64,000 bases of DNA, taken from contig CAYIWY010000005.1 of the NCBI GenBank assembly GCA_964367355.1, forward strand, positions 19,133-83,132, written 5' to 3'. The notes below the pieces were generated by a model that had not been told where the DNA came from, did not search any database, and worked only from the letters and a program-made list of their open reading frames with translations. Below are positions 5,805-49,893 of this stretch, in pieces; position 1 is the stretch's first letter, and each line of letters opens with the position of its first letter. A program made the translations under genes and the position numbers. The stretch comes from an uncultured Gammaproteobacteria bacterium. Its GTDB lineage: Bacteria > Patescibacteriota > Microgenomatia > Woykebacterales > RBG-16-39-9b.

Positions 5805-5844
5805 CTACTCGAACCAGAACAATCTAATATAACCTATATTACAA

Positions 5845-6438
5845 GTGTCTGACACAAGTGTGAGAAATAATAGAAATTTTCAAATAAATTCTGTTCACCA
5901 CCTTATTACAAAAGGCAATAACCAAGATATATTTCTTGACGATCGTGATTTCAACCGGTATATCTTTAGCCTAAGGAAATTTTCTAAGAGATTAAGTGTA
6001 AGGATCTTAGCCTTTTGTTTAATGCCAAACCATGTTCATATACTTGCCAGGCAAGATTCGGAAATAAGCTTATCTAAATTTATGCAGACTCTTTCCACTG
6101 CATATGCCAACTATTTCAATACTCGCTACAAGCGACAGGGCCATCTTTTCGAAGCTAGATTCAAGAATATTGAGGTTACTACCGATGAATATTTAATTCA
6201 CTTGAGCAGATACATTCATCTCAACCCCTCTAGTTCCCAAATAGTGCAAAGTCCGCAGCATTATAAATGGGGTAGTTACAAGCACTATTTAGGGAATGGT
6301 AGTTTAGATTTTATTGACGAGAGAATTATTCTTGCTTATTTTTCCAAAGACAATCCCAGAAGGGATTACCAAGAGTTTGTTGAATCAAGAATTGAATATC
6401 AAAAAGACATTAGCTTGCAAAAACTATTACTAGAATGA
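5845..6438 (+). mobile_element. IS200-like Y1 transposase / REP-associated tyrosine transposase (RAYT)
   Basis: 197 aa; LMPNHVHIL...YANYFNTRYKRQGHLFEARF (HUH plus Tyr motifs). GTG start overlaps palindrome GTGTCTGACAC (5846-5856); near-copy GTGTCAGGCAC at 6453-6463 downstream. Confidence 0.7.
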
Positions 6439-6491
6439 ACTTATAGTTCAAGTGTCAGGCACCCGATTCTAAATGTATTTGAAAAATTGAG

Positions 6492-6527
6492 AAAAAAAAG
6501 AGCTCAACACATGGGTGTGGTGAGCTC
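6492..6527 (-). terminator. strong rho-independent terminator oriented for minus-strand transcription
   Basis: hairpin gagctcaacacatgggtgtggtgagctc (7-bp stem) preceded on plus strand by A8, which is U8 after the hairpin on the minus strand. Confidence 0.6.
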
Positions 6528-7682
6528 TGGGGGCTAGGTACTACATCTCTCTACTCTCCTCTGGTTTTGTCCTCAGCAGTCGAAACTGTTGAAGCCTTTG
6601 GTTAAATCTGCGGCAGGAGCTGACTTATTAAATTAAAGCTTTGCTCATAACTGCCGCCGTAGTTAACAATTGGTGAGGGTCAACTTCTCAGAACTGTCAC
6701 TCTGAAAAGCCCATGCCATTTCGCTGGTGATGAAATGGACCGCTCTGCGATGGATAACTACTTCCGGAAACGGGCGTTTTACCCTTGGCCAAGAAGCTGC
6801 GAGTGAAGTGAACCCTAGGAGTACACTTACCGTTCACTTGCATCAAATCCACTTTTTTGTTAAAGACACCATCGATCGCCAGGGTCACTGGAGTCGAATA
6901 GTGCTACTCCCATCCTGCTAACAGCTCGCAGAAGTGAAGCTAAATTTGTGCCGTATGTTTTCGACATCCCACCAACGTGAGTCTATCTCAACACTTAAGA
7001 ACCTCGCAGTCCCGGTTGCGGCACCAACCAGAATCCAAACACTCCTAAGGTCCAGTTCCCAGATCACGAGGACTAGGTTGACTTCCCTTTTAACGCTCTT
7101 GACGACCATTTTTCAGATCAAGCGTCGGAGTGAAGGAAACCAAAAGTTAAGTCGACAGCCGCTCGTCATTATTACCCTGCATTGTGATCGAAACCACTTT
7201 GCTAGGCCGCAAGAGATGACTTGGCGTTAGAACTCTTTGCGTTTTTTACACTGTCGACTCCCGCAAGCAGATCCGAAGACCTGATTGTAGGTTTTGGATC
7301 GCCGAGGTGAAGGTTGACTAACACGTTGGGGCCCCGCTGTTGAGCGCTTATCCCACTTCACACCTTCGGCGAACTATGAACCAGGATGACCATCGAAGAC
7401 ACGAAGGTCCGCGACGGTTCTGTCCCGGTAGCAAAATTAACCCGGTCAGTTGGTTTGTCCCTTTCTCAGCTCGCGAAGCCAAGAAAGAGCTCCTGGTAAT
7501 CGCGGCCGCGAATATCCAAGAGGGGTGTCTAGAGTCTTGCAATTGTGCAAGTACTCAACCAACCAAAAAGACACTCCTGGAAAAAAGACCGGGTCCCCCT
7601 GCGCAGAGGAACTTGTCGCTAAAATGTTAGAAACAAATTTCTCCGCACAAAGGTTTTTTCTTACTTCATTTTTTAAAGTACG
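6492..7682 (-). ncRNA. candidate large (about 1.2 kb) structured non-coding RNA, unknown family
   Basis: 50-57% GC versus about 37% in flanking genes. No ORF longer than 98 aa on either strand; the small ORFs overlap on both strands. Bounded by a consensus promoter (7689-7717, minus) and the terminator at 6492-6527. Many local stems, e.g. gagtacttgcacaattgcaagactc and cgcggccgcg. Confidence 0.35.
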
Positions 7683-7688
7683 TTTTTC

Positions 7689-7717
7689 TTTATAACACAT
7701 TTGGCAAGAAATGTCAA
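7689..7717 (-). promoter_or_regulatory. minus-strand sigma70 promoter TTGACA, 17-nt spacer, TATAAA
   Basis: plus strand tttata 7689-7694 and tgtcaa 7712-7717, exactly 17 nt apart. Confidence 0.5.
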
Positions 7718-8037
7718 GATACTATGAGTCTGAATTACTTTTTTGGAAAAGTAATCAAAAACTTTTGCCTTGCTTGTGCTGCTAAAGAAATTCAAGTCGC
7801 TCGTATACGTCGACAACTCTCTTCGTTCAAACACGTCCGACTTAATATCTCGCTTGTTGAATTTATTTTTAACGCTGCTCGCAACGGCAATTTTTTCTGC
7901 GCTGACCTCTTTTGAAGTATTCTACTAATTTAACTGCGATTGGAAAAATTTAAAGGAGAAACCGGCAAATGCTTTTTTAGCAGATGCCGGTTAATTTGCG
8001 AACTGTTTATCAGACTTGTCCATCACTCCCTTCCCTA

Positions 8038-8463
8038 CTAGACTTCCAGTAATTGCGGCGTTACATCCACACGTTCGTTTCTGTTGAGCGGGATGCTGGC
8101 GTCGACGTTGTGCGGGTATTCCAGTCCGCGCTCGAGTATGTGGATGCGTGTTCTGCGAAGCGAGAACGCGTCAACAATCTTGTCGATTGCCGGGAGCTCG
8201 TCGAAGCCCTTGCACGAAAAGATGTCCACCCAAACCTGATTGTGTTCTGGAAATGTGTGGACAGCGATGTGACTTTCGGCGATCAAAACGAAGCCCGAAA
8301 TCCCCCAATCTTCTGGATTAACACCAGCGTACTCAAAGACGTTTGGCACCGAGATCTTGGTCATCCCGATTTCTTCGGGGTAACGGTCGAGAAGGTTGCG
8401 GACTAGTTCCAAGTCCCCGAGTTGCTTTGGGTCTCCTCCGAACCCATCGATCGTAACGTGCAT
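8038..8463 (-). CDS. speH: S-adenosylmethionine decarboxylase proenzyme, SpeH-type (pyruvoyl-dependent)
   Basis: 141 aa; ESHIAVHTFPE self-cleavage/pyruvoyl motif; hairpin terminator downstream at about 7975-8010. Confidence 0.7.
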   Translation of the reverse strand: MHVTIDGFGGDPKQLGDLELVRNLLDRYPEEIGMTKISVPNVFEYAGVNPEDWGISGFVLIAESHIAVHTFPEHNQVWVDIFSCKGFDELPAIDKIVDAFSLRRTRIHILERGLEYPHNVDASIPLNRNERVDVTPQLLEV

Positions 8464-10160: not shown

Positions 10161-10583
10161 ATGGGTTTGACTTTTAGGCTGATTTGTGGTATAATTCTTA
10201 TTAGTAAGTTGGAAGCTAGGAGGGCTGCAGTGGTCGACTGTCAAGGCTGTTCGAAAACGGATATGACCAACGGCTATGGTTACTGCAAAGATTGCGAGAA
10301 GATTTTCTGCAATCTCTGCCTCGGTAACCACCAGTGTTCGAAGAGGAAGAAGAAGGAGACCAAAACTTCGAGCAAGATCGTTCAGCTCCCGGTTCGGACG
10401 AAGAAAGGTGTGAAGCTTGACTACTTTCGAACTCTGACCCGTGATTGTCCAAACTGCGAACAGAAGATGACTTTCGCTGAAGGTTGTCTGTTCTGCCCAA
10501 ACTGTGGACGGACAATTAAAGGAGTGATAATACTGAGTGATTCCCGTCCTGTGAGCATTAAGGCCGCCAATCGGAAACGATAA
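10161..10583 (+). CDS. Cys-rich zinc-ribbon protein (multiple CxxC pairs)
   Basis: CQGC, CKDCEKIFCNLC, CPNCEQ...CLFCPNCG; true start may be an internal Met. Confidence 0.4.
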   Translation: MGLTFRLICGIILISKLEARRAAVVDCQGCSKTDMTNGYGYCKDCEKIFCNLCLGNHQCSKRKKKETKTSSKIVQLPVRTKKGVKLDYFRTLTRDCPNCEQKMTFAEGCLFCPNCGRTIKGVIILSDSRPVSIKAANRKR

Positions 10584-46594: not shown

Positions 46595-48584
46595 AGTCTT
46601 GTCTAACCTTAACCCTAAATTTTTTAGTTAGGTCTTTTTCAAGCCTAAGTCTTATTTTTTCCACCACTTTGCTTGTAAGTGTTTCCCTCGGATTTTGAAA
46701 CTCCAAACGCACGGCGAGAGATAATTTATTTTCTTTTTTAAAAGCATCAATTATCCAGGCTTTAACCAAGAGTTCATCGAATTCCTCGATGAATTCGACA
46801 ATTTTTGAGGCTAGATTTTCTTGGTCAACGAAAAAAGAAATATCCTCAAAAACACTTGGGAATTTTCCAGCCCCTAGATATTTAGTTTGCAAAGTTTGTT
46901 TTGCTAAATACTCAAAATCAAGCCAAGCGAAGGTGGTATTTAATATAATTTCAAAATTATCTAGGACTTCTGGACTGACAATTGCCACCTGGGCGACTAC
47001 CGCTTCGCCGACTTTATAACTTGTACCGTAAGAAAAAGGTTTTTCATCTGGAAGAGCTTCCTGCTTAAAATTAATAGCAAAACTTTTGAGTAAAGCTTCG
47101 GTTTCGGCTTTTACTTGTCCAAAAGAACGTGTTGAGATAAAGCTAAGTGAACGGTCTTGTTTTGGAAGATTTGTTTTCGGGTCGATTTCTTTACTGAATT
47201 CTTTGGCGATTTCAAAAAACGCTAAACTTAAGTGTTTTTGATTTACTTGGATTGCCTTGAGCAAATTTATAATCAGGCTGGGTCTTAAAAAAACAAAATC
47301 TGAACTAGTGGGGTGTAAAACCTTGATTGTCTTCTCTGGAGTTACAAATATCTTTTTCAAATCCGCCTCGGAAACTAAACTATAACCGGTTGTTTCAAAA
47401 TAGCCATAATTAATCAATTTTTCCCGAACGAAATGTTCTGTATCTTCCTCAAAAAGTTCTTTTTGTAAAGGAATTTCCCCAGAAGGTAGGTTTTTCAAGA
47501 AATTGTTGTAGCCGTAAATTCGCCCAAGTTCTTCGAGAATATCTTCCGGCAAACTGACATCAGGTCGATGCGATGGTATTGTGATCGACATTGTTTCTTC
47601 ATTTAATGGTTGAGAGCTAACTCTAAAACCAAGCGGGGAAAGAATATTGACAATTTCAGTTGGTTGCAAATCGATTCCGAGAATTTGTTTAACTAATGTA
47701 GTATCAAAGTTTATTGTTTTTTGTTGTTCGGGGAAACCCACAGTAGTAATCGTACTAGCAAAAGTCGCGCCAGCGTTTTCGGTAAGCAGTTTAATCGCCC
47801 GGTTCAAAGCGGTTGGGTGCATATTTGGATCAAGTTTTTTTTCAAAACGAGACGAAGCTTCAGTTCGAAGTCCGGTAAAAAGTGAAGTTTTGCGAATTGC
47901 CACCGGGTCATAAAAAGGAACCAAGAGTAAGATTGCTTTTGTTTTCAGGTCGATTTCACTCGATTTTCCACCCATTAAACCCGCTAGATCAATTAAACTA
48001 TTTCCATCTTCAATAATAATTGCTCCCTCTGGGAGTTTTCTTTCGACATTATCCAATGTCACTACAACCTCACTTTTTTTCGCGGCTCTAACTACTGGAA
48101 TTCCTTTTATTTTTGCAGCGTCAAACGCGTGCATCGGCTGACCCAGTTCGAGCATCACCAGGTTCGTGATATCAATGACATTATTTAGTGGTCGGATACC
48201 GGACAGTTTTAAAATTTGAGCGATCCAGTTCGGAGAGGGTTTTATCGAAATATTTTCCAGTTTTACCAGGCTATAGTACGGACAAAGCTTTTTGTTGGCA
48301 ACTTTGAAAGGAATTTTTCGATTTACTATTTTTGAGTTAAGAATTAGGTTGGTGTCCGGAGGTTCTAAATCCAGATCCAAAAGTGCAGCTACTTCCCGCG
48401 CAATTCCGTAAAACGACAAGGTGTCAGCTCGATTTGGGGTAATTTCTAAATCAAAAACGATTTCGCCGTTAATTTTTTTTATCTCTTCGACTTTGGTTCC
48501 GGATAAAAGTAATTTTTCAGCCAATTTTTCTACTGAGAGCTTTATTTTTACGTATTCTTCTAAGGCTAAAAGTGGCAGTAACAT
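46593..48584 (-). CDS. pheT: phenylalanyl-tRNA synthetase beta subunit (short form without N-terminal tRNA-binding domain)
   Basis: 663 aa; B3/4, B5 and C-terminal catalytic-like domains; directly downstream of pheS. Confidence 0.9.
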   Translation of the reverse strand: MLLPLLALEEYVKIKLSVEKLAEKLLLSGTKVEEIKKINGEIVFDLEITPNRADTLSFYGIAREVAALLDLDLEPPDTNLILNSKIVNRKIPFKVANKKLCPYYSLVKLENISIKPSPNWIAQILKLSGIRPLNNVIDITNLVMLELGQPMHAFDAAKIKGIPVVRAAKKSEVVVTLDNVERKLPEGAIIIEDGNSLIDLAGLMGGKSSEIDLKTKAILLLVPFYDPVAIRKTSLFTGLRTEASSRFEKKLDPNMHPTALNRAIKLLTENAGATFASTITTVGFPEQQKTINFDTTLVKQILGIDLQPTEIVNILSPLGFRVSSQPLNEETMSITIPSHRPDVSLPEDILEELGRIYGYNNFLKNLPSGEIPLQKELFEEDTEHFVREKLINYGYFETTGYSLVSEADLKKIFVTPEKTIKVLHPTSSDFVFLRPSLIINLLKAIQVNQKHLSLAFFEIAKEFSKEIDPKTNLPKQDRSLSFISTRSFGQVKAETEALLKSFAINFKQEALPDEKPFSYGTSYKVGEAVVAQVAIVSPEVLDNFEIILNTTFAWLDFEYLAKQTLQTKYLGAGKFPSVFEDISFFVDQENLASKIVEFIEEFDELLVKAWIIDAFKKENKLSLAVRLEFQNPRETLTSKVVEKIRLRLEKDLTKKFRVKVRQD

Positions 48585-49594
48585 TAAAATTGCTCCAAAA
48601 ATTCGATCTCATTTGAATAAAATGATCTAATATCACTGATTCCATATTTGAGCATCGCAATACGTTCTGGTCCCATCCCGAAAGCAAAACCCCGATAAAC
48701 TTTTGGATCGATATTGCAATTTGTTAAAACCTCTGGGTGCACCATACCGGCTCCAAGTATCTCGAGCCACCGACCGCTTTTGTGTAGCACCTCAACCTCA
48801 ATAGAAGGTTCCGTATAAGGAAAATGATGACCGTAAATTCTAATTTTAGTTTTTTCACCGAACATTTTCTTGGCAAATAAATCCAAAACGCCGATCAACT
48901 CGGTCATTGAGGTTTTTTTATCAACCAGGAGTCCTTCCAGCTGATAGAACGCTGGTAAGTGAGTTGCATCAAGGTTTTCCCGGCGATATACACGACCGGG
49001 AAAAAGCATCCGTATCGGTGGTTTATGTTGTTCCATATAGCGAATTTGCATTGTAGAAGTCTGAGTTCGTAGTAGTACTTCCTGGTTAATGTAGTAGGTT
49101 TGTTGAGTATCACGGGCGGGGTGATCCTTATGGAGTCTGAGTTTTTGGAAATTATACAAGTCAAATTCGACTTCAGGTCCATCCATCCAGCCAAAGCCAA
49201 GATAGTGAAAGATTTCCTTGATCTCATCGATAACCAAGAGAGTTGGGTGTTTGTGGCCAATGTCTACCCTATCTGTGGGAATTGTCGGATCAAGTAAATA
49301 AATGTCCGTAGTATCCTTTTCGTCTATTTTTTTGGGCGTAATTTTTGAGAGTCGTTGGCCAATTTTCGCGAATTTTTCTTCGGCCTCTTTTTTTAGTTTA
49401 TTTAAGAGTGGGACGATTTTTCGCTTTTCTTCGTTTGAAAGTTTTGGAATTTCGGCGAATAAATTGGTAATTGCACCGTTTTTACGACCTAGGAACTCGA
49501 TACGGGTTTTCTCGAGAGAATCGATTGTCTCAACAGAACCTAATTTTTTTCCCAAATCGCTTGAAATTTTATGAAGAAGCTCGACTTTTAGCAT
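48584..49594 (-). CDS. pheS: phenylalanyl-tRNA synthetase alpha subunit
   Basis: 336 aa; class II motifs, FPYTEPSIEVEV. Confidence 0.95.
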   Translation of the reverse strand: MLKVELLHKISSDLGKKLGSVETIDSLEKTRIEFLGRKNGAITNLFAEIPKLSNEEKRKIVPLLNKLKKEAEEKFAKIGQRLSKITPKKIDEKDTTDIYLLDPTIPTDRVDIGHKHPTLLVIDEIKEIFHYLGFGWMDGPEVEFDLYNFQKLRLHKDHPARDTQQTYYINQEVLLRTQTSTMQIRYMEQHKPPIRMLFPGRVYRRENLDATHLPAFYQLEGLLVDKKTSMTELIGVLDLFAKKMFGEKTKIRIYGHHFPYTEPSIEVEVLHKSGRWLEILGAGMVHPEVLTNCNIDPKVYRGFAFGMGPERIAMLKYGISDIRSFYSNEIEFLEQF

Positions 49595-49741
49595 AAGCTA
49601 TTGCTTATCATACAAAAAAAGCCTAAATTGAGCAACAAAAAGAAGTTTGTGAAAAACAAAAAAAGAGATTTTTTTATTTCAGAAAACAAAAAAGGATGTT
49701 TTTTGAAGCAAAAAATAAGAAGACGTATTTTTTATCGGAAT

Positions 49742-49810
49742 AAAAAATCGGTCCGGTGGTGGGAAGCTCACGCCTGCCCTACATGAGCCTCCCACTACAG
49801 AACCGATTAA
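49742..49810 (-). terminator. rho-independent terminator after rplT / before the pheST leader
   Basis: minus-strand hairpin (gtagtgggaggctcatg...cgtgagcttcccaccac) followed by U6. Confidence 0.5.
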
Positions 49811-49893
49811 CTTTAGTTAGTATAGCAGAGAATGTGACAAATGTCAAGACTATGGGGCAATTACACTGAAGCACTATAAGTTATCTGGTCAAA

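Follow-up and report, generated by a model that had tools for sequence, protein, structure and literature searches.

What is encoded by the 1.2 kb of DNA that separate a RAYT-like Y1_Tnp open reading frame (ORF; 5845-6438, plus strand) from speH (8038-8463, minus strand) in an uncultured groundwater bacterium? We address this question in a 64,000-nt stretch of DNA (hereafter the window) that originates from a 92.8-kb contig of a 0.1-µm-filtered Hainich groundwater metagenome (ENA ERZ1292617). A preliminary description of the window had correctly placed a region at 6492-7717 (minus strand) between these two genes, and had read it as a large structured noncoding RNA (ncRNA). We find that this reading is supported by the absence of coding signal, by a conserved promoter and terminator, and by compensatory changes, and we estimate a probability of roughly 85% that the window, from 7682 to 6492 on the minus strand, carries a single-copy gene for a large structured ncRNA of a previously undescribed family.

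The region had been described as jumping to 50-57% GC from about 37% in neighboring genes. The enrichment stands while its size does not: GC is 47.6% in 6492-7717 compared with 40.4% in the whole window (46-55% in 200-nt windows), which places the region in the top 0.3% of 1200-nt windows, and the contrast was overstated because the adjoining speH is itself 49-54% GC. The sigma70 promoter reported on the minus strand (7689-7717) is borne out, with TTGACA as the -35 element (7712-7717), a 17-nt spacer ending in TGT that adds an extended -10 TG, and TATAAA as the -10 element (7689-7694). In 64 kb, 0.02 occurrences of the pattern TTGACW-N14-TGn-TAWAMW are expected and 3 are observed; a generic promoter scan missed the match at 7689-7717 because it demands T at position 6 of the -10 hexamer. 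The RNA is predicted to start near 7682. Both terminators of the preliminary description are also found, i.e. a strong intrinsic terminator for the RNA (6492-6528, minus strand), with a hairpin AGAGCUCA-CCAC...GUGU-UGAGCUCU followed by U8 (-16.4 kcal/mol, z -6.6), and a separate hairpin behind speH (7960-7992, -18.5 kcal/mol). A strong extended -10 promoter that follows the speH terminator, together with a terminator of its own, marks the RNA as an independent transcription unit as judged by sequence signals.

The other two matches to the promoter pattern lie elsewhere in the window. One is exact (10167-10195, plus strand; TTGACT-N14-TGG-TATAAT) and sits inside the 5' end of a called 140-aa ORF (10161-10583), itself with just a weak zinc-finger-like match; either the true start codon of this ORF is further downstream, or the promoter belongs to another transcription unit. 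The third (49600-49847, minus strand) lies ~220 nt upstream of a 336-aa ORF (48584-49594) that, from its translation, we take to be pheS, the ORFs before this promoter resembling rpmI and rplT in the same way. It is followed by a GC-rich hairpin and U-run (~49745-49805) that looks like a leader attenuator, and the leader (49600-49847) has no Rfam match.

Five further lineages of this narrow clade (L151, L155, L103, L153, and L161) carry homologs of the RNA, always directly downstream of speH; syntenic loci were reached via speH and a lineage-specific 313-aa protein whose gene adjoins it. The L151 copy (nhmmer E 3e-67) is near full length at ≥850 nt, with a 3' end that is not defined, L155 (E 2e-54, and 1.2e-11 for the 3' part) is full length at ~883 nt, and L103 (E 2e-43) is cut by a contig end. 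L153 (E 5e-08) and L161 (E 1e-06) are full-length short forms of 462 and 592 nt, and a covariance model trained only on the long forms (R1) recovers both at full length, with 39 and 47 bits, respectively. The window copy, at 1197 nt, is the longest and most expanded form, so that the family ranges from ~460 to 1197 nt. The sequence set therefore holds five full or nearly full copies and one partial copy (L103), which fall into two groups and are too few for R-scape-type statistics. Another covariance-model match, in L060 (19.9 bits), is without helices P2-P4 (described below) and is hence a false positive.

All six loci share a promoter, TTGAC(A/T)-17-TGn-TAnAnT, just past the speH terminator, and the RNA ends in a 3' hairpin and U-tract of its own in L155, L153, and L161, as expected of an independent structured ncRNA gene. 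Conservation in related genomes, on which the preliminary description had made its reading depend, is thus found for promoter, terminator, and position, along with many compensatory changes. The spacer between the speH terminator and the RNA promoter (7718-7950) is ~230 nt long and noncoding; the L151/L148 lineage retains it at 87-88% identity, L103 does not have it, and a 63-aa ORF within it (7724-7915, plus strand) is interrupted by stops in relatives. Contigs of four independent assemblies stop within this spacer, at ~7775-7800.

The gene order GyrA, histidine kinase, SHMT, integrase, M23 peptidase, 313-aa protein, speH, RNA, DinB, and SNase is syntenic. As the whole block from DinB through speH to GyrA is retained in the clade, the neighboring genes say nothing about the function of the RNA. 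A metagenome scan by speH returned 63 loci, with the RNA only in the same species and in L103. The SpeH protein is 75-89% identical to lineages that have unrelated neighborhoods and no RNA (L086-L109), and only 72-76% identical to the clade's own relatives. With 85-89% identity in unrelated lineages it is a poor phylogenetic guide, and the pattern suggests that speH either was transferred horizontally or is unusually conserved. Among the long forms, nucleotide identity is 80-83% for the 5' core of the RNA, compared with 59-75% for the flanking speH, dinB, and 313-aa genes. Contigs that carry the clade's speH often end (9 of 13) between speH and RNA position ~210 (RNA position i being window coordinate 7689 - i). 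The strong conservation of the 5' core may explain these breaks, i.e. an rRNA-like sequence common to co-occurring genomes may affect assembly. In L151, the RNA is succeeded on its own strand by a tRNA-Met gene (L151 1639-1714), and the lack of a terminator between the two suggests that they are co-transcribed and then processed; we count this arrangement toward a stable-RNA context. Overall, we find the family only in one narrow clade of uncultured bacteria, which come from groundwater wherever their source is traceable and which are probably Patescibacteria/CPR.

What the copies share is a 5' core of ~215 nt, formed by a long hairpin P1, a closing helix P2, helices P3 and P5-P7, and a pseudoknot P4, plus a second domain. 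P1 (7597-7652; RNA 37-92) is a 56-nt three-part hairpin and the best-conserved helix (-26.5 kcal/mol, z -7.0); it is predicted in five of five independent folds, and of its 24 pairs 8 are changed on both sides and 9 on one. P2 (7587-7595 / 7439-7447) closes a multi-helix junction (7439-7595) and has 8 of 9 pairs changed on both sides, with GACCCGGUC/GACCGGGUU in the window replaced by GUCCAGGAG/CUCCUGGAU or CCUAGGAGA/UCUCCUAGG in others. Inside the junction lie P3 (7569-7576 / 7523-7530; 6 of 8 pairs changed on both sides), P6 (7492-7520; 9 of 10), the variable helix P7 (7459-7489), and the variable hairpin P5 (7536-7551), in which all 6 pairs are changed on both sides: CUUGCA/UGCAAG in the window becomes CUCGUC/GGCGAG, UCACCC/GGGUGA, GUGGCU/AGUCAC, or GCUAGU/AUUAGC elsewhere. 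The two local stems quoted in the preliminary description are real and correspond to P5 and to the tip of P6. P4 is a predicted pseudoknot that pairs GGUUGGUU (7557-7564) with AACCAACU (7448-7455) across P3; it is invariant except for one G-C to G-U change, so no pair is changed on both sides and its conservation is one of sequence. Short forms carry an additional hairpin, P2a, after P2.

The minimum-energy folds of five 5' domains, each obtained independently, agree in the order of their helices. Automatic MAFFT and covariance-model alignments do not reproduce the inner helices of the two short forms because of the inserted hairpin P2a, and for this reason we used a gapless core alignment (A7) in which helix strands of equal length were extracted by hand. 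In A7, which covers five sequences in two groups and whose construction favors pairing, 96.6% of 350 cells pair and 40 of 70 pairs are changed on both sides. None of 500 shuffles reaches the observed pairing, and sliding the partner strand by 1-3 columns lowers it to 35-50%. For this hand-extracted core of five sequences, the structure is thus supported by compensatory changes beyond both the shuffled and the slid controls, and the independent folds agree with it; covariation was the other observation that the preliminary description had asked of its reading. The 5' core and the second domain are maintained by compensatory substitutions across lineages.

The same alignment identifies the strand of the RNA. 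A7 contains 42 G-U cells, and the antisense strand accordingly pairs in only 84.6%; similarly, the 5' domain folds better than shuffles with z -8.2 in sense and -4.3 in antisense. The RNA strand is therefore the minus strand of the window. The heptamer CCAGGAG occurs twice in the 5' core (7582-7588 and 7492-7498), and CCUCUUGG (7515-7522) could pair with either copy. The L153 short form has an analogous duplication (CAAGAG / CUCUUG / GCAAGG), and short forms keep such a duplication; it may reflect alternative pairing or coincidence.

Downstream of the core, domain 2 (7300-7371) is closed by a helix CGCCGAAGGUGUGAAG / CUUCACCUCGGCG and contains internal hairpins. Its closing helix covaries, reading GGUGAG/CUCACC in L151 and L155, GGGUGGGUUG/CAACCCACCC in L161, and GGGGUGGU/ACCACCCU in L153. 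Two further elements are present in long forms only, as seen when the window, L151, and L155 are aligned and folded to a consensus (7150-7295): a conserved ACCUACA-hairpin-UUGCGGG element (AAAACCUACA, a hairpin, and UUGCGGG; 7260-7295), and domain 3, whose 10-bp closing helix AGUCGACAGU / GCUGUCGACU (7250-7259 / 7150-7159) is invariant. An expansion segment of ~205 nt (6940-7149) is partly common with L151 and missing from L155, where nhmmer skips positions 585-788. The 3' domain (6529-6939) shares the blocks 6709-6741, 6677-6701, and 6652-6664 with L155 (second nhmmer match, E 1.2e-11), and ~120 nt past the hairpin that serves as terminator in L155 are found in the window lineage alone. For the 3' 940 nt, folding surpasses that of shuffles by only a modest margin (z -2.5 sense, -2.2 antisense). 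Gain or loss of peripheral hairpins and 3' domains distinguishes the lineages and gives lengths from 460 to 1197 nt. The preliminary description is refined accordingly: conservation defines a core unit of ~450 nt, and the 1.2 kb seen here represent its longest, expanded version.

Could the region instead be, or contain, a protein-coding gene? All six frames of 6492-7717 are interrupted, as had been described, and the longest ORF is 98 aa; recoding is ruled out because TAA, TAG, and TGA are mixed in every frame. A decayed coding sequence, i.e. tnpB or another transposon gene, or a horizontally acquired GC-richer gene broken by stops, would fit the adjoining IS200-like Y1 transposase gene and a GC content above the genome background, and the preliminary description itself had raised a protein-coding homolog spanning the region, such as a decayed tnpB. 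None is found: Pfam searches of all six frames with stops masked return nothing at E≤10, tnpB, RuvC, and zinc-ribbon domains included, and neither does a concatenated six-frame translation of 7000-7720 searched against 5.8 billion proteins at the same threshold. The latter search was also meant to reach homologous loci through spurious ORFs, and returned no such loci. Translated similarity between RNA copies is independent of frame, extending over several frames on both strands, and is lower in amino acids (45-50% identity) than in nucleotides (~83%), a signature of noncoding conservation. With promoter and terminator conserved, helix substitutions compensatory, and relatives that have no transposase at the RNA site, the decayed-gene reading is largely refuted, and we give it almost no weight. 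A transcript that doubles as messenger for one or more small proteins is very improbable as well. The RNA strand does hold several ORFs of 40-84 aa, but the 84-aa ORF begins upstream of the -10 box, no ORF is kept in frame among homologs, where U-run indels shift the frames, and public gene callers call no gene in 6492-7717. The region thus has neither coding capacity nor coding-type conservation, in line with a structured ncRNA gene.

The position of the RNA, always directly downstream of speH and on the same strand, would also suit a cis-acting element, such as a long speH 3' UTR or a leader or riboswitch of a downstream gene. This adjacency is uninformative given that the entire block is syntenic, and a cis-regulatory role has a slim chance because the strong speH terminator and then the conserved near-consensus promoter separate speH from the RNA, and because no same-strand ORF follows that the RNA could regulate within one unit. 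Its own terminator (6492-6528) is followed by a gene that converges on it in the window, and the next gene differs by lineage (RAYT-like gene, tRNA-Met, hydrolase, or DinB). A link to that RAYT-like gene defines the remaining alternative, in which the RNA is that of a mobile element or a remnant of one: an ORF-less group II intron, an IS200/IS605 omega RNA, or the RNA partner of the RAYT-like gene. ORF-less group II introns have a conserved 5' GUGYG, a domain V/VI consensus, and mobility with variable insertion sites, and HEARO and the omega RNAs of IscB and TnpB (IS200/IS605) are structured RNAs that, like the one in the window, can lie beside an IS200-family Y1 transposase gene. The window RNA has GUGCG near its 5' end, and beside its terminator the Y1_Tnp/RAYT-like gene (5845-6438) is bracketed by near-identical 14-nt direct repeats, CAAGTGTCTGACAC / CAAGTGTCAGGCAC (5842-5855 and 6449-6462), each partly palindromic. 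However, the intron and HEARO/omega RNA models give no match at E≤10, homologs have GCGCA or GGUUG in place of GUGCG, and the RNA is single-copy in the window, at a chromosomal position fixed in all lineages. Unlike HEARO and omega RNAs, it has no TnpB or IscB ORF or remnant and does not co-occur with a transposase, since 80 loci with RAYT homologs (≤45% identity) hold 0 copies, and no viral, phage, or plasmid copies were found in our searches. The transposase gene is missing from this position in the syntenic L153 and L155, and is therefore a recent insertion beside the RNA terminator; being absent from homologous loci and bounded by its own repeats, it is unrelated to the RNA, and we consider a mobile-element origin highly unlikely.

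A gene for a large structured ncRNA being the reading we retain, we wondered whether this RNA belongs to a known family. At gathering score, Rfam 15 models find two tRNAs elsewhere in the window and nothing at the RNA locus; relaxing the threshold to E≤10 for 6300-8000 gives only chance miRNA- or CRISPR-like hairpin matches, and the four homologous loci searched at E≤5 give only chance hairpin-type matches. The RNA is thus not a member of any Rfam 15 family, including OLE, GOLLD, ROOL, HEARO, group I and II introns, RNase P, tmRNA, 6S, and SRP. A literature search found no description of this RNA, and BLAST of the RNA region against phages and plasmids found no similarity. Viral contigs gave 0 matches to an invariant 29-mer and 29 loci for a loose P4 motif, 0 of which were confirmed by model R1. 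We conclude that the family is previously undescribed, i.e. unrelated to any described RNA family, and that it groups with the orphan large structured bacterial ncRNAs.

Among these, OLE (ornate large extremophilic) RNA is a ~600-nt RNA of Bacillota whose gene lies in an operon with those of its protein partners. It is thought to work as a ribonucleoprotein (PMC12054373). Like OLE, the RNA described here is a large bacterial ncRNA that is confined to one lineage, has multiple helices joined by highly conserved sequences, and is without a classical catalytic or regulatory role; it differs in phylum, in the lack of a match to the OLE Rfam model, and in having no evident partner gene. GOLLD and ROOL are giant ornate RNAs of 580-800 nt, whose genes often lie within prophages and beside tRNAs. 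Their homo-oligomers consist of RNA only (PMC12286853). By its sequence, the RNA would share with them the size class, an ornate modular build with a variable and a conserved half, and independent transcription, and one homolog (L151) lies directly before a tRNA gene. In contrast to GOLLD and ROOL, it has no Rfam match, is chromosomal, single-copy, and syntenic, has no viral-contig matches, and is limited to one clade. By analogy, formation of RNA-only homo-oligomers is a possibility here too. As in RNase P RNA, several domains are combined with a long-range helix of invariant strands and with peripheral helices gained or lost by lineage; unlike RNase P RNA, the helix order is other, P4 crosses P3 as a true pseudoknot, and no RNase P model matches at E≤10. 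RNase P RNA also has universally conserved sequence blocks, which are missing here, the sole similar string lying in the variable helix P7. As such, the closest analogs would be OLE, GOLLD, and ROOL in function and RNase P RNA in architecture, a matter of analogy and not homology.

Confidence in any specific mechanism is low. The RNA would most likely act in trans, as a stable and abundant molecule. Its functional centre would be the invariant P4 strands together with the joining regions next to them, which could bind a protein or ligand or form a core for catalysis or assembly. The variable hairpins and 3' domains would expand a scaffold, much as in OLE, GOLLD, ROOL, or RNase P RNAs. The sole candidate partner is the 313-aa protein, which has the same distribution as the RNA, i.e. 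12 homologs among 5.8 billion proteins and 23 representatives among 1.84 billion. It has no sequence match in Pfam, NCBIfam, or PDB, and AlphaFold predicts a helical bundle (pLDDT 72) for which Foldseek finds only generic matches; as the whole block is syntenic, its co-occurrence with the RNA proves nothing. A more speculative and rather unlikely scenario is that the RNA is the founding member of a new "ornate" large RNA class in a Patescibacteria-like clade, whose invariant pseudoknotted core would have a biochemical job of its own in minimal genomes (catalysis, sequestration of a ligand or protein, or RNA-only self-assembly as in ROOL and GOLLD), with 3' expansions that would represent ongoing modular growth.

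Very few bacterial RNAs longer than 400 nt have complex conserved folds, and several of those that do proved biologically unusual, as exemplified by OLE ribonucleoproteins and GOLLD/ROOL cages. The ~215-nt core with its invariant pseudoknot is a compact target for structure probing, cryo-EM, and metatranscriptomics, and in the length series from 460 to 1197 nt, nature provides an example of how a functional RNA accretes modules. A new RNA family in ultra-small groundwater bacteria, which retain little that is dispensable, points to an unrecognized RNA-based function.
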